From an uncultured Gammaproteobacteria bacterium (GTDB lineage Bacteria > Patescibacteriota > Microgenomatia > 0-14-0-10-38-17), in the NCBI GenBank assembly GCA_964348895.1, contig CAYGEH010000001.1, positions 384,103 to 448,102 on the forward strand: a stretch of DNA of 64,000 bases. The letters are read 5' to 3'. Below are positions 28,499 through 63,389 of this stretch, piece after piece. The notes under the pieces were generated by a model, which was not told the origin of the DNA, searched no databases, and saw only the letters and a program-made list of their open reading frames with translations. The number at the start of each line of letters is the position of its first letter. Positions within the stretch are counted from its first letter, which is position 1. Both the position numbers and the translations under genes were made by a program.

Positions 28499-30263
<1,765 letters not shown>

Positions 30264-31266: not shown

Positions 31267-34827
<3,561 letters not shown>

Positions 34828-46000: not shown

Positions 46001-49000
46001 TTAATCTAGAGTAACCCCTTCCAGTCTTAATCCTTCGAAACGGAAGCCTCCAACACCAAGGTTTACTATAGGAGTGTGACACCAGGCCGAAAAAACACCG
46101 CTTCTCTCAGCTCGAATCCGATATTGATAGCTAAAATTTGCTTCAATACCAGTATCGGTATAGCTGTTACTATTGGAAGGAAGATTAAAAGTGTTTTCGA
46201 CTGGACCCTCTTGACGAGTTCTTACAACCTGATAACCTGTTTCTGTTAGGCTATTATCCTGCCATCTGACAATTAATTGGCCCGGATGCCTGCTATCATC
46301 AATTAAACAGTTGCTTGGCGGTTCGAGAATATCATAATCTAGATTAACTGTTCCTGTTAGTAGAGGAGAAACGCCAGTATCGGTGGTTGAGAAAATAGCT
46401 CGAAATTGAAAATAGCGATTAACGGTGGAGTTAATTGCTGATCCAGAAGGATTATTAAGATAAGACTGATTGGTTCTAAAGTCGTCCACCCAAACGCTTC
46501 GCCCCTCCCAGCCGTTAATCAACCTAAGACTGATTTGGGTAACACCATCAAGATGGGAAGGGAGAGGACCGGATAAATCAAACCATTCTCTCTGCCACTT
46601 AAAAACGGAAGCATTAGGGCTAAAACAGTGAGTGTTTGATCCGCCACAAATACCGCTTCCCTGATTGGGAACACTACCCCCCCAAGAAGCAACGGCAATT
46701 GTTCTAGTACCAGTGTTAACGTTGGTAACTATGCCTTGGAGAACATGAAATACCCCATTATAGTTTTCTCGTAAAATTACAGTTTCGGCAGGAAAAATAT
46801 GATGAATCATGCCGTTGTCGGGTAAAACAAAAACGGTGTCGTTTCTGGCACTGGCTTCAGAGGTGCCCCCGATATCAGAAGCGTTAAGAGAGGAGGCAAA
46901 ATCAATGGTAATGGAATGACTTCTTTTGTCCAGTTCATAAAGTTGTCTAATTTCCTCGGCTGAACGAGCAATATTATCAATTCTCACTTCGTCAATGATT
47001 CCTCTAAAAAAAGAATTAGCAGGACCATCGGGGTTTTTACCAATATAAGTAGTGGTATTATGTACAACAAGCGAACCATTAACGTTACCCGAAGCCTCTT
47101 CTTTACCATTAACATAGGTTCTGCAAGTAACGCCGTTGTTGGTAATAACAATATGGTTCCACTCACCCCACCTAATAACTTGTCTGGTATCAGGACAGCC
47201 GTCGTTGGTGCCTCCACCTGTGCTGGCAAAACGGTGGTGAACAAAAGCAGCGTTGCCGTTAGCATTACCCAGCCATATATGATAGTTTCGCCCTGGTTTG
47301 CCAACAATTCCTTTCCAGGCCTCATTTTGTTGATTGGCATAAATCCAAACAGAAACGGTGTAGCTAGAAATTCTTAAAGAAGCAGAGTCTGGAATAGCGA
47401 TATAATCACTGGTACCATCAAAGGTTCTTCCCTTATCAAATTTACCACCAGTAATTTGGGTTCCAGCGCTTAAACCGTGATTATTTGACAGGGTTTCGTC
47501 TTTGATGTTAATTGGTCTAGTAAGTCGATAAACCATTCTTAGGGCGTTATTTGAGGTATCAGTAATTCTCCAAGCCAAGCCAAAACCGCCCCCCCCTTCA
47601 GCCACTCGCCATAAAACTCTGTTCCAGCCCTTTTCAACTAAAACATCGGTTTGGAATTGATCAATATTTACTCCTTGACAAGTAGTGACAGTCGCCACTA
47701 GAACGCCATTAACCCAAACCTGGGAAGCATCGTCTGACCCCCAGCGGAAACGAATGGTTTGTTCTAGGGGAGAGTAAAGATAAATATGAGAATAAGCATA
47801 GACATTGTTACAGTCACCACCGCAAATAATGGCATCTAAATTAAAATTACCACTAGCGCTAGTGGCGGTTTGCCAGGTTCTGCCCCCGAAGGAGTCGCCA
47901 GGGGAGGGGTATTGATCAAGAAACAAAGCTTGATTACTTGAAGTGTCGCTACAGCCACCAGACGCCCAGCCACCGCTAAGACCGCCAAACAGTTGAGTAG
48001 TAGGATAACCACTGGTATCAGTTAGGCGTTCGCCAACACTAATGCCGACCTCAGAGTTATCGGCAAAGCGCCAGAGGCCAACAGTGTTGCTGTCAGGTTG
48101 ATGATTAGCAAAACTAGACTCACCGATAATGGCTTCAAGGAAAGTTCCGGTCCGATCAGAAGCAATATCAAAAGAAAATTTATTTTTATCGGAAAAATTA
48201 GTGGCAGAAAAGATTCGGGTAAGGCGATGATCTTGGCCAGCTCGATGGGACTCAGCTATAGCCTCTGGGTTTAGGGCGAGAGCCATTATTCTTACCTCGT
48301 CAATTGTGCCAAAAAAACGAGTAATAGCGCCACTGGATCCGATTCCAATAAAGAAATCAGCACTACTATCGGAAAGAGAAGCTGGAATCGTTCCGGTTAT
48401 GGTTCCATTTCTTAGTTCACCATTAATGTAAACATCAAGAGTTTGAGTGCTGGCATTATATATTCCAGCCACATGGGTCCAAACGAATGGTTGGAGAGCA
48501 ATAGAGCTTTGGCGAGTGGCTTGAGTGGCCCCTTGAACGCTAAATTCAACAAATCCGGATCGCACCTGGAAAAAATAAGAGCCTGATGTCCCGCTGAACC
48601 ATTTTGAAACGATAGTCTGGGCTATTGAAGTAATGGAATCATGTCTAACCCAAGCCTCAATTGTTAAACTGCCAGTAACATCCAGGCGGTTAGTTCCACC
48701 ACAGACGGAATCAAGGCAGAAAAGATGGCTACCACCACTAAAGTGTCTGGCCTTGCCAAAAAAACCATTAGTTACTGTTGTTCCTGAAGGAGTAAGATCG
48801 GCGACTGAGGCGCTGCCATCTTTAAGGAAGGCTCCCGCTCCCGAGGTTTCTTCAAAAGACCATAAACCAACAGTATTAGCGTCAGAAGAACGAGCTCCTG
48901 AGGCTAGGTTTAGGCTTCCTGTTCCCTCCATTTTAATATTATTACTGTTTGTTTTAATTAAGGGAGAAAGGAGAGCGTTATTTCCCCACAACCAGTTATG

Positions 49001-51391
49001 GGTATCAGCGTCAAGGTTTAATAGTTGTGCCTCGTTGTTAATTGGTCTCCATCCCTCCCAAGAACCATCATTGGGTGTGTTGGTGGCTCCGGTGCGAGTT
49101 TGAAATTCAATTATTCCAGCTTGATAGTTGCTAATAATTTCTGGTTTCGAAAGAGAACGAGAATAGAGTCGCAGAGAATCTATTGCCCCATTCATATACA
49201 TTGGCCCATAAAGAGTGGTTAGTCCGATTTGGGCTGGAGCAGAAGTGCTGGTAACCATGTTTCCCCCTGTGCCAGAGTATTGACCGTTAACTTCAACACC
49301 ATTAATATAAATTTCCATGTCTAGTGGACCCCTAACTACGGCGGCAACATGAGTCCATTGACCAATGGGAACAGATAGCCTTCCCCCGCCATAAGAGCGC
49401 CTGCTGGTGGGCCCAGGTCCTGTTCCGTCACCGTAGCTTATCATTAGATGGTTGGTTGGACCAAGGTGTAAATTAGTACCAAAATAGCTTCCACTATGAT
49501 TGTCGCTGTTAAAAATAGACGACCAGGATTCGCCAACAGTGCCGGCATTAGGCCGACCATTTAAAAAAATCCAACCTTCAATAGAAAAAGGTAACGTTAG
49601 GGAATTAAATCTTTCCCCCAAATTGACAAAGTCATTAGCCCCATCAAACATTAGAGCTCCAGCTCCCCAACGACGATTGTTGCTGGTCCAGCCAGAACCA
49701 GCCAAAAAGTCTCGGCCGCTGGTGTTGGCAAAGTTGGTTAAAGTACCATGATTACCCCCGCCAGAAGAATCAGAGGTGGTAGTCCCAGAGGCTTCATTAA
49801 ATCTCCAGTCGGCCAAAAGACCAGTAGAAGAAAAAGGGGTTTCACCATCGCCGGTTCGAGTGCCCAATTGGCTCCAAGACAAGGAATTTAAACCAACCAC
49901 AAATTCGCCAAGATCTATTACTTCAGAAGTATAAATTCCAGAAGGCCTTCTTTGGGCGTTATGCCTAATTTCTCGACTGGTTCGAGCAACATTGGAAATG
50001 CGAACTTCATCGATATGACCGTTAAAGTTTCTGCCGCCAGACCAAGAACCAAGCCAAACAGACTCAGTGGTGTTTCTAAGATAATTTCTTTGATTAACGC
50101 TTTCCAAGATGCCATTGACATAAACTTTAATATTAGTTCCATCATAAACACAAGCAACATGATACCACTCAAAAAGACCCTTACTGGCGAGACCAAAATC
50201 AATAGTAGTACTAGATCCATTCCCAAGAACACAGCCAAATCGGCCATCTTGGTGCCAAGTCATTTGATAACCTCGACTATTAAATTCTCTTTGAACGATG
50301 GCGTCTCCCCAAGAGGCGTCTGTTGAAAGACTGTTTGGCCAAACCCAAGCTTCAAGGGTGAATGTTCTTTCTGGGGCTAGAGCCAAAGAAGTTGAAATGA
50401 CAACGTGGTCGTTTGGTCCAGTAAAGTTGCCAGAAAAAGAGCTGACCTTGGCTTGGTCAGTGAAGGTGGCTCCACCTTGAGCTGTACCTCCATGACCTAG
50501 ACCAGAGCTATCCTGCCAATCATTATTCATGCGCCACAGACCGACAGTACTAGAGTCAACCGCCATTTCTTGGTATTTTATTCCTTGAGTGTTGTTATCA
50601 GGGAGGGGAAGGTCTCCTTCGTTGCCAGTTCGATTTCTAGTTCCAGACCAAAAAGCCCCACCCTGATTATAAACAATGGTTGGATCAATAAAAACAGGGT
50701 AGGCTCGACTGGGATCAGATAACCATTCCCAAGAGGGAATAAGTTTAATTAAATATTCTTTTTCTTTTTTTGAGTTATTATTGTTTTCTTTGTTTTCATT
50801 AGGAGTGATGGTTAGAATTACATCTTCGCTTCTTTGGCCATTGGCGTCAACCATAAATGGTTTTTCAAAATGAAATCGATATTCTTCAGTTTGTGGGTCA
50901 ACAAAAACAAACAACGAAGAAGGTTGATCTTTAAGAACAGCGTTTTCTAGGTCGGCAGTAAAGGTAAAAACGGCCTCTTGGTTTGGAAAAAGGCTTACCA
51001 GAGAGGAAAAGTCATCAACAACGACATCTTCTTTTAGGCCGTTATCAATGATCCGATAGACAATACTAATTCCTGGCCAGACATTTTGATAAATAAGCTC
51101 TTGATCGTTAGATTCTATTGTCTTAGCCTCTTTCTCTAAAGAAAAGTTTATCCAAGAGTCTCCTTGTCTAAACTTGGCATTTGGTTTATTTTTTCTTTCT
51201 CGGTTTCCAAGGTAAATTTGGAAGTTTTTCTCCTCTTCGGCTGATTGGTATAAGAAAAGGCTGTTGGAGGGGGCTTGAAAAAGCTTAGGTTGATCTGCTT
51301 TAGTGGGATCAGCCCTTTTTATTAGTATTAAAGAAACAATTAAGACTAATAAGAAAATAGCGATAGAAAATATTATTGATTTTTTGGTCAT
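46001..51391 (-). CDS. giant secreted/surface protein (1796 aa) with multiple LamG/concanavalin-A-like lectin domains and a C-terminal FN3-like domain
   Basis: N-terminal signal/anchor. Recurrent ...NFNGHIDEVRISN.ARS.EEI... LamG-type motifs (at least 6 copies). The gene starts 3 nt after the upstream giant gene. Confidence 0.6.
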   Translation of the reverse strand: MTKKSIIFSIAIFLLVLIVSLILIKRADPTKADQPKLFQAPSNSLFLYQSAEEEKNFQIYLGNRERKNKPNAKFRQGDSWINFSLEKEAKTIESNDQELIYQNVWPGISIVYRIIDNGLKEDVVVDDFSSLVSLFPNQEAVFTFTADLENAVLKDQPSSLFVFVDPQTEEYRFHFEKPFMVDANGQRSEDVILTITPNENKENNNNSKKEKEYLIKLIPSWEWLSDPSRAYPVFIDPTIVYNQGGAFWSGTRNRTGNEGDLPLPDNNTQGIKYQEMAVDSSTVGLWRMNNDWQDSSGLGHGGTAQGGATFTDQAKVSSFSGNFTGPNDHVVISTSLALAPERTFTLEAWVWPNSLSTDASWGDAIVQREFNSRGYQMTWHQDGRFGCVLGNGSSTTIDFGLASKGLFEWYHVACVYDGTNIKVYVNGILESVNQRNYLRNTTESVWLGSWSGGRNFNGHIDEVRISNVARTSREIRHNAQRRPSGIYTSEVIDLGEFVVGLNSLSWSQLGTRTGDGETPFSSTGLLADWRFNEASGTTTSDSSGGGNHGTLTNFANTSGRDFLAGSGWTSNNRRWGAGALMFDGANDFVNLGERFNSLTLPFSIEGWIFLNGRPNAGTVGESWSSIFNSDNHSGSYFGTNLHLGPTNHLMISYGDGTGPGPTSRRSYGGGRLSVPIGQWTHVAAVVRGPLDMEIYINGVEVNGQYSGTGGNMVTSTSAPAQIGLTTLYGPMYMNGAIDSLRLYSRSLSKPEIISNYQAGIIEFQTRTGATNTPNDGSWEGWRPINNEAQLLNLDADTHNWLWGNNALLSPLIKTNSNNIKMEGTGSLNLASGARSSDANTVGLWSFEETSGAGAFLKDGSASVADLTPSGTTVTNGFFGKARHFSGGSHLFCLDSVCGGTNRLDVTGSLTIEAWVRHDSITSIAQTIVSKWFSGTSGSYFFQVRSGFVEFSVQGATQATRQSSIALQPFVWTHVAGIYNASTQTLDVYINGELRNGTITGTIPASLSDSSADFFIGIGSSGAITRFFGTIDEVRIMALALNPEAIAESHRAGQDHRLTRIFSATNFSDKNKFSFDIASDRTGTFLEAIIGESSFANHQPDSNTVGLWRFADNSEVGISVGERLTDTSGYPTTQLFGGLSGGWASGGCSDTSSNQALFLDQYPSPGDSFGGRTWQTATSASGNFNLDAIICGGDCNNVYAYSHIYLYSPLEQTIRFRWGSDDASQVWVNGVLVATVTTCQGVNIDQFQTDVLVEKGWNRVLWRVAEGGGGFGLAWRITDTSNNALRMVYRLTRPINIKDETLSNNHGLSAGTQITGGKFDKGRTFDGTSDYIAIPDSASLRISSYTVSVWIYANQQNEAWKGIVGKPGRNYHIWLGNANGNAAFVHHRFASTGGGTNDGCPDTRQVIRWGEWNHIVITNNGVTCRTYVNGKEEASGNVNGSLVVHNTTTYIGKNPDGPANSFFRGIIDEVRIDNIARSAEEIRQLYELDKRSHSITIDFASSLNASDIGGTSEASARNDTVFVLPDNGMIHHIFPAETVILRENYNGVFHVLQGIVTNVNTGTRTIAVASWGGSVPNQGSGICGGSNTHCFSPNASVFKWQREWFDLSGPLPSHLDGVTQISLRLINGWEGRSVWVDDFRTNQSYLNNPSGSAINSTVNRYFQFRAIFSTTDTGVSPLLTGTVNLDYDILEPPSNCLIDDSRHPGQLIVRWQDNSLTETGYQVVRTRQEGPVENTFNLPSNSNSYTDTGIEANFSYQYRIRAERSGVFSAWCHTPIVNLGVGGFRFEGLRLEGVTLD

Positions 51392-51393
51392 TT

Positions 51394-54300
51394 TTAGTTG
51401 TTACCGATAATCCACCAGTTAAAGGAAATTCTTTCGTTAATAGCTCGGCTAACGCCGACGACAAAATATCTTCTTGTTTTAGTTATTTTTTCTCCTGTTT
51501 GTGGGTCAACCTCTTCAATTGTCTCAACCACTTTATTTTTGAGGTAAAGAACTTGGTTTTGAGTAGTTGAGGTTGGTGTTAAAAAGATCATGGCGTCACT
51601 AGTTAGATTTTCATTATATATAACTAAGTCTGTTTGACCAACTGGCAAGACAGCGCTTCCAGCGGAAGCATTAGTAACAATTCCTGGGGCCCAAACACCA
51701 ATGTTATTAAAGTTCTCTGAGGCGGCAACGACCATTCCTGGTCTTTCTTTTTCGGTAGAAATAGCAAGGCTGTCAACAGCAACTTGTCCAGCAAATTGGG
51801 CCGAGCCGTCAGCGTTAATCTTGGCAACAACCTCTTGATTAATCCCCTTGACAAGCAACTCTCCAAACCCTGAGCTTGGATCAAGTTCGGAATTAATAGA
51901 GAGGGGGCTCTCGCCTTGGACAGCACCGCCTTCGCTGTCTTGGTCTGTGCTATTGGCTAAATTAAAGACTAGGTCTTGGCCTCCGTGTGGTCTAATATTT
52001 CCAGCAATTAAGTCTCCGCCGACAGTTAAATGATGAGCAATAAAAACATTGCCGCCAATATCAATAGCGATTTTGCCGCTTAAGATGTCCAGACCTCCTA
52101 AGCCTTCTCTTTGTAGATATAATGTTCCATTCAAATTACTAACACCACCATCGGTTAAAGATAAGCTATTGATGGCTAGGCTATTTGTTGTCACTTGCCC
52201 GAAAACGGTTAAGTCGCCATGATGAATTAGTTTTTCAGTCAAGGAGGCAACATAACCTTTATTTATTTGCTCTTTTTCTTGAGAAGAAAAAAGAACTTCG
52301 TCTTCAACTGGCAAAACACTGCTGGTATTTAAATTAAGCCAACCCTCCACTTCAGCAAGTAATGTTTTAATATCTACTTCTTCATTTTGAGTTTTTTCTT
52401 CGTGAACTTGAACATTATTTTCATTGCTCTGTGTGTTTTCCTCGTTACCCTGAGATTGAGTCAACATCTCTTCTCTTACTATCGCCCTAATGTTATCTAG
52501 GCTAATGTTTTTAGTTAATAGCTCTCCAAAACCACCCTCTCTGGCCACCACTCGGTCAACATAGAGCGTGCCAGAAATAGTGGCATCCTGAGCCACTTCT
52601 AGATTTTGGGTTTTAATGCTTTCAGCTTCCAATTGGCCAAGATTGGCGTTGTTGGCCAATAAGTCCCCAAAGTTAGCCTTAAGAGAGTCAATTTCTGTTG
52701 CTGTTGTTGTTCCGGCCACTTCTAAATCTCCAAATAGAGTGGTTTGTTTAGTTTCGGTATCAAACTCCGCTGTTGGTTCATCGGTGGAATTAACAATCGA
52801 GATCTTTGAGTTTTGAGTTGTAGTTTTGATTGTTGCATTTTGATTGTCGAATTGTATTGTCCCTGTTTCTATCACTGGAGAAATAATTTTTTCTTGAGTA
52901 TTAATATTTGTGGCAGTAATATTATCGACAATTAAGCTTGTTGTTTGAATTAGGCCGGCTCTTAGCTCAGTGGTTATTGTTTCCGCAAAGGCACCAATTC
53001 TATTAATGGTTTCTCCAGTTGAATTTCTAACTAGCCTAAAATTAAATGGGTCAAGATTTGTTTGTTCTGCTGAAGAAGAAGGTTGACCATCATTAACTAA
53101 ACGTAAATCACCAGCACTGGCAAGATAAGCATCTGGGTCATACCAAGAAAGATTAATAAAAATTAATATTTTTCCAACTGCTTCTGGATCAGGATTATTA
53201 TATGTTTCTAGGGCTTTTCCGATAATTTGTCCAGCTCGAGTTGCCTTCATGCCAACACCAGGAATATCAGAAGAAGTAATGGGGTCTCCAGGTTTAATTG
53301 GACCGTTCTTAGTAGTAACTTTAACAGGAACACGACCAACAAGAGCGACTCTAGTGTTACTATTTTCAGTTCCGCCCATAACCTGGAATGGAGAAGTTGA
53401 AACAACGCCGACCAGTTTATTGTCATAGGGGCTAGTTGACTTATCAAGCAACCTATTGGTTGAAACAGAAAGAATGTCTCCTGGTTCAGTTGTAGTTATA
53501 GACTGATAATTTTCAGCCAAGTCAGAACCAGTAATCATCGGATCGCTTGTAGCTTTGGCCTCAAGCTCTGATTGAAGCTGAGCTTGTCGAGTGGCACAAT
53601 CAACACAATATTCAAGTTTGCCGAAATAGACTTCAGGGTTCGTTAACAATCTCATTCCTCTGCTTTTAGGATAAACCTTAAGTTCGTCGCTCTCAGCAAT
53701 AGCAGTAGGCTTAGCGTATCTGGTAATCTTATAGTTATTGCGGATATAGTCAACATCAGTTAGTTGTCCCAGCGTGGTCAGCCCATCATCAAAAACAGTT
53801 ACTTGGACTGGAATCCACCCTGAGTCCTGTGAAAAAGAAAGAGGAAGAATTGTCAAGTCCTGAATTTCTGAAGCCCAAACACCTCGAATTAAATCAGTCA
53901 CAGGATCATAAAGAACAAAAATTTCTGGATCTCTTGAAGAAGTGATAAACCTCCACCTGAGCCCAACGTCACGAGCTCCACACCAGGCAGCGTCTGAGCG
54001 ATTACACAGCACTCTAAAGCGAGCAATTGTATCAGCGGAATCAAGACTACGAGGTTGGAGCAAGGTGTTTACATCTGGGTCGGCAGTAGTTCTAATATTA
54101 GGGAAAAAAGTAGCGTCGTTAAGACCAACGTCCATGCTAACTGGACCAGCGGTAGGCATATCAAGAACGGTGGCCCCAGTGCCATATAGCATGTCTCCGT
54201 GATCAATACAGCTGGAGCACTCAAAATTTGTGGCGGTGACGGTGCCAACCACCTGGAGGGCCGTGCTTGGTGATGGTGTCCCAATGCCGACATTACCGGC

Positions 54301-57300
54301 GGCAGTAATCCTCATTCTTTCAGTCGTCGCACCAATAGTGGAATCGATTCTAATCCTTAGACCATCACCCACATCGGTTGTTCTAATATCAATGAAGCCA
54401 GCTGGAATTGTTCCGTTCACAAGTCCCCCGAACAACCTCATTCCCGTTGCCCCAATGCTTGGGTCGCCGCCGAACATTAAATTCCCGTCTATATTATTAT
54501 TTGCATTAGGCAACAAAATATTTCCTGTGCCTAAGGCCAATCTTTGTCCCGGACTTGTTGTTCCAATCCCAACATTGCCTACCCCTGTTATTCTCATTAC
54601 TTCAGCTGCGGCTCTGTCAGCTGTGCCAGTAGCGCCGCCACCAGCAGTTTGAAAGATAATGCTTGAAGTTCCTAAGCCAGTAGCAAGACCCGAAGCAAGG
54701 GTTAAATCTCCGCCTGCTAAATTAGTGCCTCCAACAAAAGCACCACCAGCGTTAACCGTCAAAGCATTACCCACGCCACTTGCGGTTCTTCTTTCTAAGC
54801 CAATAGTTCTGGCTGTTTCACCCCCAAACCCTAAGACTCTAGTGGGAGAGATTGTTCCAATCCCGACATTACCAGCAAGAAGAAGATTGTTAATATTAAT
54901 TAAGTTGTCTGCGGCGAAGGAAATATTATTAGAGGCAGAGTTAATGGTGATATCACCGGAAGCGTTAGAAATTGTTGATGAAGCTCCGCCGATATCAAGC
55001 CTAGCTTGAGGATTTGTTGTCCCTATTCCCACATTGCCTCCAGGTGCAAAAAAAACTCTATCTATCCCTCCAGGCAAGAACCTTATGGCAGAGTCGAGTG
55101 TTCCTAGGACCATTTCTCTACCAGTGGTTTCGACATATAAACCAGGCATTGACCAAGCAGCGCCAACTCTCAAAACACCTGATCCAGTTTCAGCATTAAT
55201 AACACGCATTTGGGAGCCCTCTATTCTTGTTTCCCCCAAAACGTGCAACCTTGCCCCCGGTGTTGCTGTTCCAATACCAAAATTTCCGGTTGCGTCAATT
55301 CTTACTCTTTCCGTGTTCCCAGTGAACATTGCTAAGTTGTTTAAAGCTGGGCGATCAAAACCGACGCCGGGATCTATAATTGATAAGCTTCTTGTTGGTC
55401 CTGATGTTCCGATGCCGACGTTGCCAGCAGTTGTCAGTGAAATTGCAGCATTGGCAGGATCAAGAAAGAAATTGCTGTTAGCGCTGTCAATAAACGTTGC
55501 TGAAATCATTGATGTGAAAGCGTGAATTGTGCCAGAAGAGGTGGCGTTCCCTCGAATATCTAATGTCATCGCTGGGGTGGTGGTCCCTATGCCAACATTA
55601 CCCCCTGGTGTTTCAAAAATAGTGGAATTAATAATCGTGTCTGCGTCTAGCATTTTGGGAATATAGTTGGCTGAAGTACCAGAAAAGTCGACAAGAGAGG
55701 ACCCCCAAAAACGAGAATCAATTGTTCTTGTTTGTAAAAGACCAGATGAGTGAGTGACCACAGTGTTGGTCGAGCCGGCACCAAGAGTTTGGATTCTTGC
55801 TTCTCCGGCAACATCTAGTCTTACCCCCGGTGTTGCTGTCCCTATCCCGACATTACCCAGTTCATTAACCATTAAAGCTTCAACTCCTCGAGCAGTTACT
55901 CGTAAAGGTCTTAAGTTAGAACCAGTCGCCGTCGCCAGATTAAGAAGAGCCCCAGTCCCAGTGTTGTTGGCAGTATCAGCCAAAGTAAACAGATTAACTC
56001 CTGCTCCAGTTGCTGCTCCCCAAGTAAAGGCAGTAGTAAAAGCACCATGAGCAAGAGAGAGGTTACCATCAGGGGCAGTTAAAGCATTCCATCTTACGGT
56101 TACTGGAGACCAAACTGGAGCTGCTCCAGCTCCTTGAGAGGCTAAGAATTGACCACTTGTTCCAGCTGCACCTCCAGGCATTAAGGCTCCGCTAAACTGA
56201 AGATTACCAGAGACATCAAGTCGTTGAGCGGGAGAAAGAGTTCCTATGCCGACGCTATTACCGGCTGGATTAAAAACTAACGGTTCCCCACCCCAAGTTT
56301 GAATAGCCTTGTAAGTGCCGAAATCTCCTAAGGTAATACCATCATTAAGAGAGGGTCCAACAAGTAGAGCATAATTTGCCGGGTCGCTATTTGCTAACCC
56401 AGAAGAATCTCGAATAACACTTAGTCTTTGTGCCGGTGTCGTCGTCCCAATCCCTACATTGCCAGCAGTAGTAATGGAGATTCCCCCAGTATCACCAATA
56501 GTCCGAGTTGCTCCTCCCAAACCAAGGTTAGCTCCCAGGGTTGGAGTTCCCCCTAGGGTGTAAGTGCCTCCGACTACTCCAGAGAGAGTTGGAGTAGCAA
56601 TACTTGGTGAAGTCCCAAAGACTAGGAGTCCAGAACCAGTCTCATCAGCAACCGAGAGAGCCAGGTTAGCTGAACTAATAGTAGTTGCCAGAGTCCCCCC
56701 AGTAGTAGTGGTGACTAGTCGATCAGCGGCCAGACCAGAGAAGGTGATTGTACCTGAGGAGGCAATTCCGGTTGCTGCAGCAATAGCCCCAGCACTATTA
56801 ACTTGGAACTGAGAAGCCGAACCAACAGAGAAAAGGGAAGCGGGGGTGGTGGTGTTAATGCCGACGTTACCGGCTCCACTAATAGTCATAGCTTGACGAG
56901 TAGTTATTCCGTCAGAAACCCAGAAGTTAAGCTGAGATTGTGTTCCGCTCGCTACATAGTCAGATCTAATAAGAGCCCTGTTGGCGTCATTTTGAGCGTG
57001 TCTAAACTCTAACCCTGGAAAGGACACAAGATCAGGAGTATCCATAAGCATTCTTGCCTCAAAGCCTGATCTTAATATCGTTAGAGCACGGGTTGGTGTT
57101 GCTGTCCCTATCCCGACATTACCCAGTTCATTAACCATTAAAGCTTCAACTCCTCGAGCAGTTACTCGTAAAGGTCTTAAGTTAGAACCAGTCGCCGTCG
57201 CCAGATTAAGAAGAGCCCCAGTCCCAGTGTTGTTGGCAGTATCAGCCAAAGTAAACAGATTAACTCCTGCTCCAGTTGCTGCTCCCCAAGTAAAGGCAGT

Positions 57301-60300
57301 AGTAAAAGCACCGTGAGAAAGAGAGAGGTTGCCATCAGGGGCAATTAAGGCATTCCATCTTAAGGACGAAGCAGGAATAGTTGAAGTCCAAGCTGGAGCA
57401 ACCCCAGCTCCTTGAGAGACAAGAAATTGACCACTACCTCCAGCTGCACCACCAGGCATTAAGGCTCCGCTAAACTGAAGGTTACCAGAGACATCAAGTC
57501 GTTGAGCGGGGGAGAACGTGCCGATGCCGACGTTATCATTAATAATTCTCATCGTCATCCACTCGACTCTATTTCCAAAATTAAGAGCACCCCCCACATT
57601 TCGGTAGTTAATATCACCAGCGGCAGCATTATTAAACCACTGACCCCCGCTTTGTGAGAATCCAATCCAAGCATTAACGCCCGCCCCCCCTGAACCTATT
57701 CCAGAAGGTCCCGTAGTGGGCATATCTATCCAGCTTCCACTTGCTAAGGGAAAGTCTCTTATTTCTAGTCCCCCATCGAATATCGCTCTTCCTCCAGCTA
57801 CTTGTAATCTTGCCCCCGGTGTCGTCGTCCCTATCCCCACATTACCAGCAGTAGTAATAGATAGCCCCCCAGTATCACCAATAGTCCGAGTTGCTCCTCC
57901 AAGACCAAGGTTAGCTCCCAGGGTGGGAGTTCCCCCTAGGGTGTAAGTGCCTCCGACTACTCCAGAGAGAGTTGGAGTAGCAATACTTGGTGAAGTCCCA
58001 AAGACTAGGAGTCCAGAACCAGTCTCATCAGCAACCGAGAGAGCCAGGTTAGCTGAACTAATAGTAGTTGCCAGAGTCCCCCCAGTAGTAGTGGTGACTA
58101 GTCGATCAGCGGCCAGACCAGAGAAGGTGATTGTACCTGAGGAGGCAATTCCGGTTAGGTTAACTAAGGCTCCAGCGTTAGTTAAACGCTCAGTCCCAGC
58201 TGTTCTTAGGCCACCATCAATTAAGTTAAGAGAGAAAGAACCAGTTCCTAGATTATCTAAACCCAAGACATCAGCAGTAGTAGTATTTCTAGCAATAGCA
58301 ACAGGACTAGTTCCAGAAAGAGTCAGAGGAGTAGCTCCAGTTAGAGTTAAACCAGCAAAGGTGGGAGCGGCAGCGGTATGAATATCCTGAGGTAGGTTAA
58401 GAGTCCAAGTCCGACTAGCAGATAAGTCTTGAACGCCAGTGGGGGAGACAGTGACCCGATTGGCTGTTCCTACTATTTCTAAAGTCCGACTAGTCGGGAC
58501 CATGGTTCCAGCAACTAAGGTAGTATCTCCATCAGCTAAAGTCAGAGTCCGATTAGCAGTAAGAGTAGTTGGAGTTAGACTAACAGCAAAGCTACCCGTA
58601 CCCCCAGCTCGACCTTGAAGAACAACGGCATCTTGAGTGGCTGCAGTCTCTACTCTTAAAGCTCCTCCTTGTAGTTGGAGTCGGGCCAGGGTTGGTGTCG
58701 CTGTCCCAATGCCGACGTTACCCAGCTCTGTTATTGTCATTCTATCCACTAGGTTATTTAATCCAGACCCAGAAGTTCCCGCAGGAGCGGTTTGAAAAAT
58801 AACAGCTCCTCCAGGTCCCGTTCCGGTCCCTCTACCTCCTGCTATTTGTAGACCACCGCCTGGAATGTTAGAGCCCAAGCCTCCAGTTCCCTGTAGTGTG
58901 TAAGAAGTGGGGGAAGTGGCCGTTACCCCTTGTCCAAAATAAATATTGTTAATAGGAAAAGAAGATGAGCCAGCCACAAAAAGATTGGCAGCAGTGGCGT
59001 TAGCGGAACGACCAATGGCGATAGAAGCGGTGTTTCCCGAAGCTCCTTCTCCAAGAGTAACTCCGCTAGCACCACTAATAGCAGATCTTCCAATCGTTAC
59101 ACTATTTCCTTGTAGTCCAGAAACGCCTTGGCCAATAGCAACAGCGTTATGGCTGGCCGAAGCACCATGACCAATTACTAGACTATCATTTCCTATATTA
59201 GAAGCACTATGGCCTATGGCATAAGATCTTATGGCAGTAGCAGAAGCCCCAGTGCCGATAGCAAAAGATTGATCTGACCCTGTAGTAGAACCTAATCCAA
59301 TAGCAAGAGAACTTGTACCACTTGCGTTTGCATTTCTGCCGATAGCTAATGAGCTGTTACCAGCAGCAATTGCTCCAAAGCCGAATCTTTCGCTGTTCAC
59401 ACCAGATCCTGGGCTGGTGATATTGCCAACAACATGTAGGGCACTAAGTGGACTCGCTGTCCCTATCCCGACATTACCCAGTTCATTAACCATTAAAGCT
59501 TCAACTCCTCGAGCAGTTACTCGTAAAGGTCTTAAGTTAGAACCAGTCGCCGTCGCCAGATTAAGAAGAGCCCCAGTCCCAGTGTTGTTGGCAGTATCAG
59601 CCAAAGTAAACAGATTAACTCCTGCTCCAGTTGCTGCTCCCCAAGTAAAGGCAGTAGTAAAAGCACCATGAGCAAGAGAGAGGTTACCATCAGGGGCAGT
59701 TAAAGCATTCCATCTTAGTGAAGAAGCAGGAATAGTTGAAGTCCAAACTGGAGCTGCTCCAGCTCCTTGAGAGGCTAAGAATTGACCACTTGTTCCAGCT
59801 GCACCTCCAGGCATTAAGGCTCCGCTAAACTGAAGATTACCAGAGACATCAAGTCGTTGAGCGGGAGCGGGAACACCGATTCCTACATTGCCAGTAAAAA
59901 AGCCAGAGCTGTTAACACTAAGAGTACCAGCAATATTCGTGTTGCCAGCGTGGTCAACGGCAAATTTAGTGGTCAAAGGAGAACCAGAGGCAAGCCTTAG
60001 CAGATTATAGCCGGTGCCGCCAGTTCCAGCCTCAGCATAGATTAGCGATCCAGTGGTAATGTTGCTATTTTGGACAGTAAAAGAGTTATCGGTAGTAGTG
60101 CCAGAAAAAATCATTACCCGCCCTCTAGTATCAGTATCAGGCTGAATTAAAATATCGCCACCACCGACTCCACCAGTAGATTGAATGGTAATTGCTTCGC
60201 CTCTTAGACCAAAAGTGCCAGAGGTAGACTCAATGGATGGAGAAGGGGAGGCCAAAACAAGATTACCACTGGCATTAATTACAGGAATTGTGTTGGCTGT

Positions 60301-61194
60301 AGCTGAAGGGGTTGCGGGATAGCCTTGTAAAAAACGGGCATTATAAGCATAGCCAACGGTAGCAATTTGTTGGCGAGGCGTCATTTCGGCGTCGGTTCCA
60401 ATGGTAATTCCCAACCAAAGATTAACGTTTTCAGCAAAGATGTTTGGATTTATGGGATTAACACTCCCCATCATGGTGGTGAAAATGCCGTCCTGATTAG
60501 TGCTGATATTTTTATTTTCCGTCCAAAGAGGGGTGCCACCTGTGCTAGCGCTATAAATTTGAAAAGTTGCCGAAACAGTAGCGTGAATAGGGGTGCCGAC
60601 ACTATTAGTAAGTCGGCCCTGAAAAGAAATTAGATTTGGTGGTAGAGTAGGAAGAACAGCCAAAGAAGGCTCTTCGGGTGGTTGGGCAATAAATTGAGCG
60701 TAAATTCCCCAACCCAAAGCACCAATTAAAAGAGTGATTATTAAAAAGCTAAAATACTTTGTGATTGGCGACGATTTGATAGGGTGGAGAGATGCTTCTT
60801 CGAAAGAAGGCTGAGAGAATTTAGTTAGCCAATTGATCTTTAAGGCCTCTTCTTGCTGACCATACTCTCTTTTAATCCAACTTGCAAACTTATTTAAAGA
60901 AATCGCTTTTCTTCTTATAGTGGAAGGAGAAACACCCCTCTTTTTTAATTGTTCAAGATATTGACTGATCTTTTGTTCAGTAATTAATGGGCGATGAGAT
61001 TTCTGTTCTTTTGTTGGCCCTGAAACACAATCGAATGAGGTTTTAGTTTTAGAAGAGTAATGTTTACCTTGTGAGGAACGACCAAAAAAAGAAGGGCTTT
61101 TTATAGAACGATAAAAACCCAAAAAATGAAAAAAAGATAATTTTTTTTCTTTGGCAGATTGAATATGACGAGTCATTTCCCCTTTGACTATCAA
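51394..61194 (-). CDS. giant (3266 aa) Gly/Thr/Ala-rich repeat surface protein with an N-terminal cytoplasmic integrase-core-binding (SAM-like) domain and a TM helix
   Basis: Residues about 70-110 (ITEQKISQYLEQL...STIRRKAISLNKFASWI) fit the Phage_int_SAM/core-binding pattern. A TM helix follows (FSFLIITLLIGALGWGIY). More than 20 beta-helix-like modules carry a (L/A)GNVGIGT(A/T)TP motif, as in tail-fibre-like proteins. Confidence 0.6.
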   Translation of the reverse strand: MIVKGEMTRHIQSAKEKKLSFFHFLGFYRSIKSPSFFGRSSQGKHYSSKTKTSFDCVSGPTKEQKSHRPLITEQKISQYLEQLKKRGVSPSTIRRKAISLNKFASWIKREYGQQEEALKINWLTKFSQPSFEEASLHPIKSSPITKYFSFLIITLLIGALGWGIYAQFIAQPPEEPSLAVLPTLPPNLISFQGRLTNSVGTPIHATVSATFQIYSASTGGTPLWTENKNISTNQDGIFTTMMGSVNPINPNIFAENVNLWLGITIGTDAEMTPRQQIATVGYAYNARFLQGYPATPSATANTIPVINASGNLVLASPSPSIESTSGTFGLRGEAITIQSTGGVGGGDILIQPDTDTRGRVMIFSGTTTDNSFTVQNSNITTGSLIYAEAGTGGTGYNLLRLASGSPLTTKFAVDHAGNTNIAGTLSVNSSGFFTGNVGIGVPAPAQRLDVSGNLQFSGALMPGGAAGTSGQFLASQGAGAAPVWTSTIPASSLRWNALTAPDGNLSLAHGAFTTAFTWGAATGAGVNLFTLADTANNTGTGALLNLATATGSNLRPLRVTARGVEALMVNELGNVGIGTASPLSALHVVGNITSPGSGVNSERFGFGAIAAGNSSLAIGRNANASGTSSLAIGLGSTTGSDQSFAIGTGASATAIRSYAIGHSASNIGNDSLVIGHGASASHNAVAIGQGVSGLQGNSVTIGRSAISGASGVTLGEGASGNTASIAIGRSANATAANLFVAGSSSFPINNIYFGQGVTATSPTSYTLQGTGGLGSNIPGGGLQIAGGRGTGTGPGGAVIFQTAPAGTSGSGLNNLVDRMTITELGNVGIGTATPTLARLQLQGGALRVETAATQDAVVLQGRAGGTGSFAVSLTPTTLTANRTLTLADGDTTLVAGTMVPTSRTLEIVGTANRVTVSPTGVQDLSASRTWTLNLPQDIHTAAAPTFAGLTLTGATPLTLSGTSPVAIARNTTTADVLGLDNLGTGSFSLNLIDGGLRTAGTERLTNAGALVNLTGIASSGTITFSGLAADRLVTTTTGGTLATTISSANLALSVADETGSGLLVFGTSPSIATPTLSGVVGGTYTLGGTPTLGANLGLGGATRTIGDTGGLSITTAGNVGIGTTTPGARLQVAGGRAIFDGGLEIRDFPLASGSWIDMPTTGPSGIGSGGAGVNAWIGFSQSGGQWFNNAAAGDINYRNVGGALNFGNRVEWMTMRIINDNVGIGTFSPAQRLDVSGNLQFSGALMPGGAAGGSGQFLVSQGAGVAPAWTSTIPASSLRWNALIAPDGNLSLSHGAFTTAFTWGAATGAGVNLFTLADTANNTGTGALLNLATATGSNLRPLRVTARGVEALMVNELGNVGIGTATPTRALTILRSGFEARMLMDTPDLVSFPGLEFRHAQNDANRALIRSDYVASGTQSQLNFWVSDGITTRQAMTISGAGNVGINTTTPASLFSVGSASQFQVNSAGAIAAATGIASSGTITFSGLAADRLVTTTTGGTLATTISSANLALSVADETGSGLLVFGTSPSIATPTLSGVVGGTYTLGGTPTLGANLGLGGATRTIGDTGGISITTAGNVGIGTTTPAQRLSVIRDSSGLANSDPANYALLVGPSLNDGITLGDFGTYKAIQTWGGEPLVFNPAGNSVGIGTLSPAQRLDVSGNLQFSGALMPGGAAGTSGQFLASQGAGAAPVWSPVTVRWNALTAPDGNLSLAHGAFTTAFTWGAATGAGVNLFTLADTANNTGTGALLNLATATGSNLRPLRVTARGVEALMVNELGNVGIGTATPGVRLDVAGEARIQTLGAGSTNTVVTHSSGLLQTRTIDSRFWGSSLVDFSGTSANYIPKMLDADTIINSTIFETPGGNVGIGTTTPAMTLDIRGNATSSGTIHAFTSMISATFIDSANSNFFLDPANAAISLTTAGNVGIGTSGPTRSLSIIDPGVGFDRPALNNLAMFTGNTERVRIDATGNFGIGTATPGARLHVLGETRIEGSQMRVINAETGSGVLRVGAAWSMPGLYVETTGREMVLGTLDSAIRFLPGGIDRVFFAPGGNVGIGTTNPQARLDIGGASSTISNASGDITINSASNNISFAADNLININNLLLAGNVGIGTISPTRVLGFGGETARTIGLERRTASGVGNALTVNAGGAFVGGTNLAGGDLTLASGLATGLGTSSIIFQTAGGGATGTADRAAAEVMRITGVGNVGIGTTSPGQRLALGTGNILLPNANNNIDGNLMFGGDPSIGATGMRLFGGLVNGTIPAGFIDIRTTDVGDGLRIRIDSTIGATTERMRITAAGNVGIGTPSPSTALQVVGTVTATNFECSSCIDHGDMLYGTGATVLDMPTAGPVSMDVGLNDATFFPNIRTTADPDVNTLLQPRSLDSADTIARFRVLCNRSDAAWCGARDVGLRWRFITSSRDPEIFVLYDPVTDLIRGVWASEIQDLTILPLSFSQDSGWIPVQVTVFDDGLTTLGQLTDVDYIRNNYKITRYAKPTAIAESDELKVYPKSRGMRLLTNPEVYFGKLEYCVDCATRQAQLQSELEAKATSDPMITGSDLAENYQSITTTEPGDILSVSTNRLLDKSTSPYDNKLVGVVSTSPFQVMGGTENSNTRVALVGRVPVKVTTKNGPIKPGDPITSSDIPGVGMKATRAGQIIGKALETYNNPDPEAVGKILIFINLSWYDPDAYLASAGDLRLVNDGQPSSSAEQTNLDPFNFRLVRNSTGETINRIGAFAETITTELRAGLIQTTSLIVDNITATNINTQEKIISPVIETGTIQFDNQNATIKTTTQNSKISIVNSTDEPTAEFDTETKQTTLFGDLEVAGTTTATEIDSLKANFGDLLANNANLGQLEAESIKTQNLEVAQDATISGTLYVDRVVAREGGFGELLTKNISLDNIRAIVREEMLTQSQGNEENTQSNENNVQVHEEKTQNEEVDIKTLLAEVEGWLNLNTSSVLPVEDEVLFSSQEKEQINKGYVASLTEKLIHHGDLTVFGQVTTNSLAINSLSLTDGGVSNLNGTLYLQREGLGGLDILSGKIAIDIGGNVFIAHHLTVGGDLIAGNIRPHGGQDLVFNLANSTDQDSEGGAVQGESPLSINSELDPSSGFGELLVKGINQEVVAKINADGSAQFAGQVAVDSLAISTEKERPGMVVAASENFNNIGVWAPGIVTNASAGSAVLPVGQTDLVIYNENLTSDAMIFLTPTSTTQNQVLYLKNKVVETIEEVDPQTGEKITKTRRYFVVGVSRAINERISFNWWIIGNN
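55836..56262. repeat. intragenic direct repeat family A, copy 1 (about 430 bp)
   Basis: More than 95% identical to 57104-57530 and 59447-59873. Confidence 0.8.
56440..56775. repeat. intragenic direct repeat family B, copy 1 (about 340 bp)
   Basis: About 98% identical to 57818-58155 (GGVVSGVGTYTLGGTPTLGANLG... module). Confidence 0.8.
57104..57530. repeat. intragenic direct repeat family A, copy 2
   Basis: Near-identical to copies 1 and 3. Confidence 0.8.
57818..58155. repeat. intragenic direct repeat family B, copy 2
   Basis: Near-identical to 56440-56775. Confidence 0.8.
59447..59873. repeat. intragenic direct repeat family A, copy 3
   Basis: Near-identical to copies 1 and 2. Confidence 0.8.
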
Positions 61195-61404
61195 AAAATG
61201 TTAGTCTTATTAGCTTTTTGCTATAATTAAAATAGGGTCGGAGCGAACAAAAATAGCGTATATTCTAAATTCTGTTTCCCCCAGCTTTAGTTTTGTGCCT
61301 ATTCGTTCAATCCGACTCTATTTTTTGATTGATTATTTTTTTCACAGCAAGCTTATAGTTTTTATCAAAAACAAGGGTTTATTTATTATTTTTAGCGAAC
61401 ACAG

Positions 61405-61941
61405 CTATGATTTTGTTTTAGAAGAAAGCTCTTCGTTTTGTTTAAAATGATGAAAAGAAGAATAATCATCCTTAAGGCTGCAAAAAGACAGAAATCCTCG
61501 AACATCTGACAGGTAGTTTCGAATCGTAGAAGAACTTTTTCCCTCAACTTTTAAAGATTTGGCAAATTGATCTAAAACTTGCCAGGCGTCATTAGTTTCT
61601 TTTTTTTCGGGAATATTGGCTATTTTTTTACCACGGTTATTTGGGATCCAACCCTGGTTAACAAAGAAGTCGGATAATTTTCTTAAAGCAGAGAGTCGAC
61701 GGTTAATGGTTGCAACAGAAACATAATTATTTTTTAAAAAAACACTGTAATGGTTTAAAACAACTGGTGATATCTTTTGAGCTATTATGATAGATTCAGC
61801 TGAATCTAGTTCTGGATAAAAGCTTGCCAACCAACCCAGAAAGTGACGAATATCAATAAGATAATTTCTGGCTGTATTTTCAGCTATTTTTTGTGTTTTC
61901 AAATATAAGGAAAACGGCCGGAGGATTTTCTTTGAGTCCAT
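61405..61941 (-). CDS. small protein (178 aa) made of two tandem phage-integrase N-terminal SAM-like (core-binding) domains, with no catalytic domain
   Basis: Two copies of the S..T...Y...[IV]..FL.W/F pattern (ENTARNYLIDIRHFLGWL and SSSTIRNYLSDVRGFLSF). Lies immediately upstream of, and co-oriented with, the giant gene. Confidence 0.5.
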   Translation of the reverse strand: MDSKKILRPFSLYLKTQKIAENTARNYLIDIRHFLGWLASFYPELDSAESIIIAQKISPVVLNHYSVFLKNNYVSVATINRRLSALRKLSDFFVNQGWIPNNRGKKIANIPEKKETNDAWQVLDQFAKSLKVEGKSSSTIRNYLSDVRGFLSFCSLKDDYSSFHHFKQNEELSSKTKS

Positions 61942-62960
61942 AAGTTTATAAAAATAACCACAAGAAAGAAAAAGAAAAAATTAACAAAATTGCTAGAAAA
62001 TCAAGGATTTGAGAAAATGTTTCTTTTTTCATGCGGTAATCAAAAATTAGCTTTAGATTATCAAGATTATCAATTATTACAATAAGACTACACTATTAGA
62101 AAAAGCCTGTCAAGTAATACTTATCCTTATCGAAAGAAGGTTTGATATATTATGATTGAGACAAAAAAGCACAAAAACAACCACTTTTTAATTTTTAACT
62201 AAAAATAAACAAGACACAATTAACCGCAATAACTAAAAATATATTTTCACGTGGATTTCATTTCAAAATATAAGCATAATTTAATATCTATTAACATATC
62301 AAAATAATATAAAGATTGAATACTTTGCCTTTTTTTAATTTGCGGTAATTATTTATCCTTTTTTCTCTTTAATTAATTAATTTTTAAGAAAAATTATTAA
62401 TTCTCTTAATATTTTTAACCTAAAGAAAGTTAAAATCCCTATTTTTCCGATTTTTTTATTTATTTCTTTTTCAAGAGGGGAAAGAGAAATAAAATTACCG
62501 CCAAAAACAACAAATAAGGCTTTTTTCTTATGAGGCGCCGTTATTTTTCACCCTTTTAGCTATTTTCACGGGCCCTAGTTAGCTGGAGTCGGGCAAAATA
62601 AACAAACAATGCTATTTTTAGCAGTTAAATGTTTTATTTGACAGAAAATATTAACACAAACATTAGTTCAAAATATTGGAATAAAATATAATTTATTTAT
62701 TTTTTTATTGACTCAAGCTGGCCACCACTGTTCTTTGAGATAAATTTTTCTCTTTTAAAGAAAGAAAGAAAATTGTGGTGTGAAAAGGTTTATAGTATAT
62801 AACTAGAAGATTAAAAAAAGACAATAAAGATAAAAGAGGGGCCTACAACAACAAGCAAAGAAAAGAACACCATAGAAAATTAAGAAATATAGTGTGCTTA
62901 AAGAAGAGTGGTCTTGGAGTTGAAAAGAATAAGGGGGGCCTTTCTCAAATTAAACTTTGA

Positions 62961-63389
62961 TTATCTAAAATTAACGGTAAGCACTTGGGGAAGGGGTTGA
63001 CCGTCCGAATGAGCATTAATTTCATATCGACCAACAGCAGCACTGGTTAGATAAAAGATCGCTTGGCCAGTACTATCTGTCTTTGGCTGAGAGTTTTCTA
63101 TTTTTACAGCCTGATTGGCGGTTAGCTCAACCGTTCTTCCTTCAACCGCTAGGCCTTGATTGTCAAGAAGAAAAACACTAACCTTTATCCTTTCTTTATC
63201 GTTCGCTTTGGCTGTTAATGGAGAACCAAAGAAATAAGAATTTGCCGGAGAATAAACAACTTCTCTAAAGGCCGCTCCGCCCAAGAAAGTACGAGAGCGA
63301 ACTAAAAAGACTGCACCAGAAACAATTAGCAAAACAATGGCAGCAATAAGAATGGGTGTTAGGCTTCGTCTTTTCTTTGTCTCTTCCAT
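62961..63389 (-). CDS. membrane-anchored hypothetical protein with a beta-rich (Ig/carboxypeptidase-regulatory-like) ectodomain
   Basis: N-terminal TM helix (ILIAAIVLLIVSGAVFLV) followed by a beta-strand-like region. Confidence 0.35.
   Translation of the reverse strand: MEETKKRRSLTPILIAAIVLLIVSGAVFLVRSRTFLGGAAFREVVYSPANSYFFGSPLTAKANDKERIKVSVFLLDNQGLAVEGRTVELTANQAVKIENSQPKTDSTGQAIFYLTSAAVGRYEINAHSDGQPLPQVLTVNFR

Follow-up and report, generated by a model that had tools for sequence, protein, structure and literature searches.

Integrase-type core-binding domains, one of them split between two genes, on the cytoplasmic side of a giant tail-fibre-like protein in CPR bacteria

Introduction

Here we describe a gene module in a 64,000-nucleotide (nt) stretch of DNA from a Candidate Phyla Radiation (CPR)/Patescibacteria genome—this whole stretch, which also carries an rRNA operon, is referred to below as the window. 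In the module, core-binding (CB) domains of the integrase type, free of any catalytic domain, lie on the cytoplasmic side of the single-pass membrane anchor of a giant tail-fibre-like protein; the association is real, and not a chance adjacency. All features of the module lie on the minus strand, and its three large open reading frames (ORFs) were correctly called in a preliminary description of the sequence: a small protein of 178 residues (61405–61941), the giant fibre gene (51394–61194; 3266 residues if a TTG is the start, the likely start being the ATG at 61176), and a second giant of 1796 residues with LamG lectin-type domains (46001–51391). Independent ENA and Logan assemblies show the same gene order, including the small-gene/giant and giant/LamG junctions, the latter being confirmed in eight contigs; the arrangement is therefore not an assembly artefact. 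The closest named relatives of the small protein come from metagenome-assembled genomes of Candidatus Shapirobacteria.

The explanation that we favour, and that we consider probable as a whole, is that the module is an operon for a membrane-anchored giant filament to which the small protein docks by fragment complementation. Members of the family, which would extend across the CPR, would have a cytoplasmic N-terminus with two integrase-type CB four-helix domains (CB1 and CB2), the gene being split here within CB2. The small protein supplies CB1 and helices A' and B' of CB2; the giant supplies helices C' and D', the transmembrane (TM) helix in a predicted N-in orientation, and about 3,100 extracellular residues. 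The two products may then re-associate, so that a basic CB-CB module would be suspended by non-covalent contacts from the cytoplasmic side of the anchor of the fibre—a docking that we infer from a Rosetta-stone argument and from translational coupling. A terminator-like element between the two genes would uncouple their expression, such that the soluble partner could be made on its own or in larger amounts than the giant. The CB-CB module may bind DNA or another cytoplasmic ligand without recombining it, and attachment outside the cell would be the task of the fibre together with the co-transcribed LamG lectin giant; a link to an episymbiotic lifestyle is conjecture.

A core-binding domain divided between two genes

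The N-terminal core-binding four-helix domain is a feature of tyrosine recombinases, and it is found here in one complete and one divided copy. The 178-residue protein contains one complete integrase N-terminal SAM-like (CB) domain at residues 10–97 (Pfam SAM_1, E 4.5e-14), then a match of residues 123–157 to positions 2–36 of the 85 in the SAM_4 profile—half of a second CB domain, corresponding to helices A' and B' (residues ~118–157)—and finally a non-conserved tail. In the giant, residues 71–110 (60865–60984) match Pfam SAM_1 at profile positions 43–82 of 83 only, corresponding to helices C' and D'. With half-profile matches on two genes, the count comes to two CB domains, of which the second is split. 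The preliminary description had counted three, two in the small protein and a third at the N-terminus of the giant; the small protein in fact has one and a half and the giant a half, while the reported lack of a catalytic domain holds.

Joining the halves in silico restores the domain. The joined sequence from the window gives a single match to profile positions 1–82 (E 2.7e-11), and joins from two distant loci likewise cover positions 1–82 in one stretch (E 4e-14 and 1e-14); the unjoined halves from the same three loci each match half the profile. The adjacent ORFs thus encode two complementary parts, without overlap, of a domain that homologues have in one piece—a split pair in the Rosetta-stone sense. 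The joined window sequence is colinear with two unsplit proteins, P0034 and P0035, with the break located in the B'–C' loop. Typical CB signatures (T.RNY..D..F and NRRLS.LRK) are near-invariant in the family; lineage-specific extensions make up the tail of the small protein and the first ~60 residues of the giant. Both parts are basic, with isoelectric points (pI) of 9.7 for the small protein and 10.2 for the N-terminal tail of the giant.

The module is not a recombinase, as it lacks the catalytic domain: Pfam searches of the 178-residue protein, the giant, and the LamG giant find no match to PF00589, the C-terminal domain with the R-H-R-Y active site. NCBIfam XerC/XerD models match at model positions ~3–101 only, with 39–48 bits against cut-offs of ~330, and a PDB sequence search with the small protein returned nothing useful. 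These N-terminal matches of about 100 residues, and the names 'site-specific integrase' or 'XerD' that NCBI and JGI give to relatives, could suggest that 61405–61941 is the decayed remnant of a xerC or xerD gene beside an unrelated giant. No catalytic-domain remnant was found downstream of the small gene, however, where the spacer has stops in all frames; the missing half-domain is instead carried by the next gene, unsplit fusions to the fibre exist, and length and end point are conserved in at least 313 cluster representatives and at least 313 metagenome loci (see below), most representatives ending at the same residue. The pseudogene explanation, which the preliminary description had named as the finding that would overturn its own proposal, is contradicted by this conservation and exceedingly improbable.

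Conservation of the split

The small protein has a characteristic size, and its split is old as well as conserved. All 25 of the word-indexed homologues are 142–231 residues long, and with two exceptions (the truncated P0015 and the single-CB P0023) they stop just past the motif ..TIRNYLSDVRGFLxF. HMMER, run exhaustively against 1.84 billion cluster representatives (clusters at 50% identity), found at least 313 representatives at E <= 1e-10; among the best 150, 113 are no longer than 235 residues, and their match ends at query residues ~150–157. A metagenome scan found at least 313 loci with a family member, of which 80 were fetched: 53 are split, four are unsplit, and 23 could not be called, being either too short or too divergent. 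The split falls in the same loop in at least 53 of these 80 loci, and the length of ~155 residues and the end point are kept across the family, evidently under purifying selection.

What lies at the split is far more variable. In some loci the two ORFs overlap, with a conserved TTG start (AAATTGAA...); in others a TAA or TAG is followed directly by an ATG; in a third type, a spacer of 120–210 nt has several stops in every frame; and in a fourth the spacer holds entire extra genes. At one junction (L019) both relevant frames are closed by stops. Junctions of such different kinds rule out, as a general explanation, a sequencing frameshift or a recent pseudogene, and likewise splicing, readthrough, programmed frameshifting, and UGA reassignment. 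Judged from the sequences, the halves are two polypeptides, encoded as separate cistrons in most relatives.

A single polypeptide made from both ORFs—by frameshifting, readthrough, or bypass, or by splicing of the spacer—deserves mention all the same, as the two ORFs in the window share a frame and are separated by a spacer that is highly structured and has a 15-nt direct repeat (TCTTCTAAAACWAAA) on either side, and as the halves of several relatives are parted by one in-frame stop or a +1 overlap. Against this, the spacer in the window has seven in-frame stops, the frame relation varies by locus (0, +1, or +2, with L019 closed in both frames), the lone in-frame stops are TAA or TAG rather than TGA and are followed by ATG, and some spacers hold whole unrelated genes. 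We rate this explanation as very improbable. Reassignment of stop codons under genetic code 25 was considered and rejected, given that the separating stops are TAA or TAG and that the window's genes read through under table 11; an intron or ribozyme in the spacer was rejected as well, as it matches no Rfam family and, at 121–210 nt, is too short for a group I or II intron.

Unsplit relatives bear directly on the preliminary proposal that CB domains are attached to a membrane-anchored fibre. A search with the joined sequence found P0034 (annotated as 'site-specific integrase, partial', from Gracilibacteria) and P0035, both of which cover it end to end, and the exhaustive search added full-length giants, including P0131 (2590 residues), P0084 (1869 residues), and P0103 (2524 residues). 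In the unsplit giants, a single chain runs from two complete CB domains through a TM segment to the LSFQGRL fibre N-domain. With P0034, P0035, P0084, P0103, and P0131 encoding the order CB-CB-TM-fibre as one polypeptide, of up to 2,600 residues in other CPR lineages, the proposal is well founded. Versions with a single CB domain also exist (P0036 and P0041, the latter a complete gene of 655 residues).

The extracellular part attached to the module varies. In P0131 it contains seven stretches of collagen triple-helix repeats; the cytoplasmic CB module has therefore been combined with different types of fibre. In four loci (L046, L071, L088, and L108), the small gene with its one and a half CB domains is followed by a giant with a TM segment and DUF2341/LamG-type domains (motif AAWWDDSWMYRK) in place of a fibre. 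The small protein may thus partner with giant envelope proteins of different kinds.

Predicted structure

Structure prediction with AlphaFold2 depended on the input. A single-sequence prediction for the joined protein with its full joined tails reached a predicted local distance difference test (pLDDT) score of 52, and its Foldseek matches were not significant; a joined construct of 214 residues, predicted with an alignment of the family and the unsplit proteins, gave two four-helix domains at pLDDT 87.7. Rows with the giants' N-termini were left out of the MAFFT alignment, being misaligned to CB1 owing to the internal pseudo-repeat of the domain. The modelled helices span residues 4–16, 21–41, 59–71, and 76–95 in CB1, and 118–132, 137–157, 165–177, and 182–203 in CB2; those derived from the giant have pLDDT values of 86–95. 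The predicted fold superposes on XerD at 1.7 Å (the tool did not identify which domain was superposed), and Foldseek agrees. Among the lower-ranked structural matches are SroF, MrpR, Ndc10, and ALOG, all of them CB-derived DNA binders free of catalysis.

Membrane anchor and fibre of the giant

The preliminary description gave the giant a single TM helix, and this is the case: residues 147–169 (60688–60756) form the only hydrophobic window in 3,260 residues. Since the hydrophobic segment begins some 140 residues from the N-terminus, it is best read as a (type II) signal anchor and not as a cleaved signal peptide. The 140 residues on its N-terminal side contain 26–27 lysines and arginines and 10 aspartates and glutamates, and the next 60 residues beyond it contain two and three, respectively; a basic N-tail and an acidic segment past the helix indicate an N-in, C-out topology by the positive-inside rule. 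The cytoplasmic N-terminus that had been proposed is thus supported by hydropathy and a positive-inside calculation, rather than by a dedicated topology predictor. The small protein has, by eye, no hydrophobic segment, and as it is also basic, a meeting with the giant's tail in the cytoplasm is consistent.

From N- to C-terminus, the giant consists of the cytoplasmic half-CB, the TM helix, a beta-rich N-domain with the motif LISFQGRL, a Gly/Thr-rich fibre with YadA-head-like and GNVGIGT repeats, and a C-terminal region of ~900 residues; the extracellular part comes to ~3,100 residues. The GNVGIGT-type repeats were noted previously, and we count 14 such motifs. The giant matches the PHROG tail-fibre families 9942 (E 3e-24) and 18345 (E 2e-11) and, weakly, the Pfam domain YadA_head (E 4e-4); a match of residues 186–244 to the NCBIfam family Bdello_MAT_N (E 4e-5) scores 23.5 bits, below its cut-off of 60. 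No Peptidase_S74 domain was found in the giant with Pfam. The C-terminal 901 residues have no Pfam or PDB sequence match, and a homologue search with the last 400 residues found two weak matches only; the poor conservation of the last ~900 residues is as expected from the sequence of a variable tip.

The fibre region has grown by duplication. Three modules of ~150 residues (residues 428–582, 1213–1367, and 1640–1789; 59431–59895, 57076–57540, and 55810–56259) are 82–90% identical to each other, and two 128-residue modules (residues 1000–1127 and 1461–1588; 57796–58179 and 56413–56796) are 92% identical. These internal duplications, in the region 55810–59895, are recent, and the local GC content is raised to 0.47–0.49. 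Most public assemblies break at these duplications, and the regular breaks of contigs inside the giant fit the near-identical internal modules.

Directly after the fibre giant comes the LamG giant (46001–51391), as reported before—the TAA stop of the former is 2 nt from the ATG of the latter. It has an N-terminal TM segment and Laminin_G_3 in four stretches (E 3e-92), together with a weak fn3 match (E 1.4e-3, below the Pfam cut-off) and an NCBIfam TafC-like match (E 4e-30, also below cut-off). LamG/DUF2341 giants lie near the module in six other loci (L007, L017, L018, L026, L046, and L071).

The structured element and the spacer

Immediately 3' of the small gene, the spacer contains an element (61213–61325) that folds far better than shuffled sequences (RNAfold, z = -4.4). 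It has a long covarying outer stem, an apical hairpin that always carries a G-rich GGGGRAA loop, and a TTTTAATTATAGCA tail; the tail 3' of the apical hairpin reads TTTTAATTATA. The covarying pairs of the outer stem are TAGGGTCGG/CCGACCCTA, CAGGG/CCCTG, ATGCGGATCGCC/GGTGACCCGCAT, and ACGGTGGACC/GGTCCACCGT, and the counts of compensatory pairs come from a model-fitted alignment and are hence biased towards structure. A covariance model built from six loci (R1) scores 109.8 bits at the element, its only forward-strand match in the window, and has forward-strand matches in 16 related loci. Most of these start within ~10 nt of the small gene's stop; those in L032 and L046 lie further downstream. 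Where an inserted ORF puts 800–900 nt between the element and the giant (L035 and L050), the element stays near the small gene. Its position at the 3' end of the small gene and its U-rich tail point to a terminator, an attenuator, or a processing site. Rfam gives nothing relevant at E <= 10 in 60900–62300, and nothing at its gathering threshold. A repeat or miniature inverted-repeat transposable element was considered and rejected, as neither the hairpin arm nor the covariance model finds another copy in the window.

In relatives, the spacer at the split site is often occupied by small ORFs and behaves as an insertion hot spot. ORFs for four-helix-bundle proteins of the 23S_rRNA_IVP family occur in L012, L045, L049, L050, and L067, where they were tested with Pfam (three are above its cut-off), and further copies were judged by eye in L040, L052, L055/56, and L108. 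Other spacers contain a PDDEXK_3 ORF (L013) or an SNase homologue (L035) and, by eye, NYN- and DUF3800-like ORFs; the 23S_rRNA_IVP and PDDEXK_3/GxxExxY families are typical of 23S rRNA intervening sequences (IVSs), and the other ORFs include small nuclease-like genes. In L067, the IVP ORF is enclosed by a 34-nt inverted repeat, which starts 13 nt ahead of the stop codon of the small gene and ends 19 nt short of the half-domain of the giant. The spacer in the window has the hairpin and no ORF.

These observations raise the question of how the split arose. An IVS-like element may have caused the fission or colonised the gap, its stem perhaps being cut by RNase III so that the two mRNAs are parted; such an origin would be an addition to fragment complementation, with which it is compatible, and we entertain it tentatively. 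The spacer ORFs at the split site speak for it, as do the inverted repeat of L067, which has the architecture of rRNA IVSs, and the window's ORF-less hairpin, which is like short IVSs in size and shape. On the other hand, many loci are split without any spacer, the hairpin of L050 is complete and lies before the ORF instead of around it, the U-rich tail after the hairpin resembles an intrinsic terminator, and the window's rRNA genes contain nothing similar by the covariance model.

Two side observations concern the same sequences. The window's 16S (28510–30263, plus strand, 1754 nt) and 23S (31274–34821, plus strand, 3548 nt) genes exceed the Rfam models by ~220 and ~620 nt and so contain insertions; neither an IVP-type ORF nor a copy of the hairpin element was found in them. 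The 15-nt direct repeat that flanks the spacer (TCTTCTAAAAC(A/T)AAA, at 61411–61425 and 61042–61056) is in frame in both ORFs, encoding SSKTK; it flanks the spacer in this genome only and may be a local duplication or chance.

Upstream region and neighbouring genes

A micro-ORF (61946–62032) ends 4 nt before the ATG of the small gene and encodes a 28-residue peptide with a single TM helix (MKKETFSQILDFLAILLIFSFSFLWLFL). A homologous TM peptide of 28–42 residues (motif ..LLIF..SF[LV]WL[FW]) lies directly upstream of the small gene in 13 of 13 loci checked, and is kept even where the relative's small protein is only 27% identical.

Upstream of the operon, the block CTTGACAGGCTTTTTCTAATAGTGTAGTCT (62085–62114) has the form TTGACA, 17 nt, TAGTCT; it is promoter-like by its match to the consensus and putatively serves as such. 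The block is unique in the window and near-identical in L005, L003, L010, L033, and L012. A generic scan for sigma-70 promoters and terminators did not flag it. Directly after it come two tandem copies of TGATAATCT (62055–62073), conserved in an alignment of the upstream regions of six loci and a candidate operator or 5' untranslated region element. Further conserved blocks in the region 62035–62260, including AATGAAATCCACGTGAAAA, are possible operator sites, and the AT-rich non-coding stretch of ~930 nt that contains the upstream blocks is kept by relatives too. An invertible promoter with phase variation was considered and rejected, as no convincing inverted repeats flank the upstream region.

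Beyond this stretch is a gene for a TM-anchored protein of 142 residues with a Big_1/Invasin_D3 Ig-like domain (62961–63389; Pfam Big_1, E 5e-13). By tblastn, it has an orthologue next to the small CB gene in ~65 loci; in close relatives the two genes share a strand, and in many other loci they are divergent. A 125-residue protein (63612–63989) is another conserved neighbour of the module.

What the module may do

The preliminary description likened the architecture to that of ToxR, and the comparison is apt in part: the protein is bitopic with one TM helix and its N-terminus inside, but the OmpR-type winged helix (Trans_reg_C) is absent at Pfam E <= 0.1, so the module is not a member of the ToxR family. 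A ToxR-like one-component switch can nevertheless be imagined, in which the fibre senses contact, the tethered CB-CB module binds promoter DNA, and the split tunes the response through the supply of the soluble half. Its topology is that of ToxR-type regulators, CB domains have a DNA-binding fold, the module has a basic pI of 9.7–10.2, and the promoter-like block is followed by the tandem TGATAATCT repeats as putative operators. There is no winged helix, however; any DNA target is putative; a repetitive fibre of 3,100 residues would be an unusual sensor; no regulon or repeat of the binding site was found elsewhere in the window; and the same module is found on fibres, on collagen-repeat fibres, and probably on DUF2341/LamG proteins. 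As very different giants carry the same module, a generic anchoring role fits at least as well, and we regard the switch as unlikely.

Alternatively, the CB domains may have lost DNA binding and become a cytoplasmic platform for protein–protein contacts (in assembly, clustering, insertion, or retention), the small protein being an adaptor or chaperone that caps the nascent N-tail. The small gene lies upstream, is translationally coupled in many loci, and is followed by the terminator-like element, all of which is consistent with a partner made beforehand and in excess; moreover, the module is always co-encoded with membrane proteins (the micro-TM peptide and Big_1), and the small gene is also found upstream of other types of giant. 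However, the near-invariant CB signature and the superposition of the predicted fold on XerD argue against a loss of DNA binding, and we found no known precedent for CB domains as pure protein adaptors. Such a platform is possible but rather doubtful. Within the complementation model, what is left beside the ToxR-like and the adaptor role is a tethering of DNA or the nucleoid of an unspecified kind.

A more ambitious proposal would combine several of these elements into a trans-envelope link between attachment and DNA at the inner end of a host-contacting fibre—either a contact-responsive switch working by regulated complementation or a tether that keeps the chromosome or incoming DNA at the attachment site—with the split made by an IVS-like element. 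We consider this combination quite improbable.

Fragment complementation remains the explanation that we favour, and several points weigh against it. The AlphaFold2 model is of an artificial fusion chain, and the last 55 columns of its alignment, which hold the giant-derived helices, are covered by three rows only. The start codon of the giant is uncertain, and its first ~60 residues lack conservation. In L088, L046, and L071, hidden Markov models detect no second half-domain on the giant, so the small protein may not always need a complementing half. A simple terminator scan did not call the hairpin, whose loop is too long for the tool. The basis for DNA binding is fold, family, and basic charge only, and the binding of the small protein to the giant's tail is something that we infer indirectly from the sequences.

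Comparison with known systems

The CB fold is common to the module and the XerC/XerD-type recombinases; the module differs in having no catalytic domain, in having two tandem CB domains with the second split, and in being tethered through the membrane to a giant. Folds derived from recombinases have likewise been reused without recombination in the plant ALOG transcription factors, the SPbeta MrpR and phi3T SroF repressors, and yeast Ndc10, which are soluble nuclear or cytoplasmic DNA binders, MrpR keeping a dead catalytic-like domain (PMC3537659, PMC10927535, PMC10516654). Unlike the module, they are never membrane-tethered, fused to a fibre, or split. ToxR, CadC, and TcpP are built in the same order as the module—a (putative) DNA-binding domain in the cytoplasm at the N-terminus, a single TM helix, and a C-terminal part beyond the membrane—but have a small sensor domain outside in place of a fibre of ~3,100 residues, and a winged helix that the module lacks.

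On its extracellular side, the giant resembles Bdellovibrio MAT fibres, phage tail fibres, and YadA adhesins in its beta-rich N-domain (weakly), its tail-fibre PHROG matches, its YadA-head-like repeats, and its variable C-terminal tip. In MAT fibres, the N-domain follows a cleaved signal peptide and there is no cytoplasmic domain (PMC10769870). The giant also differs from these fibres in having no detected S74 chaperone-protease and no autotransporter anchor, in being much longer, and in its recent internal module duplications. As for the spacer, 23S rRNA IVSs are selfish stem-loop elements with S23p ORFs that are cut by RNase III (PMC4990558). The likeness consists of a long stem-loop, sometimes with a 23S_rRNA_IVP ORF, that interrupts a unit whose fragments presumably still work together; here, in contrast, the interrupted unit is a protein domain, and many family members are split without such an element.

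Full-text searches of a literature library returned no description of the CB-TM-fibre architecture or of the split, and both the architecture and the conserved domain fission are apparently undescribed.

Significance

The module is widespread, with at least 313 clusters at 50% identity and at least 313 metagenome loci, and the database label 'site-specific integrase/XerD' has two consequences: it inflates counts of mobile elements and it hides a cell-envelope system. The stretch between the genes adds a candidate structured RNA and possible IVS-type selfish elements inside a former coding sequence. For protein science, an evolutionarily stable natural split of a small four-helix domain offers a ready-made system for testing how protein fragments complement each other. 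An attached life on other cells is presumed for CPR/Patescibacteria, whose means of attachment and contact sensing are poorly understood; the module represents a new domain architecture at their surface, with the DNA-binding domains of recombinases on the cytoplasmic tail of giant surface fibres.

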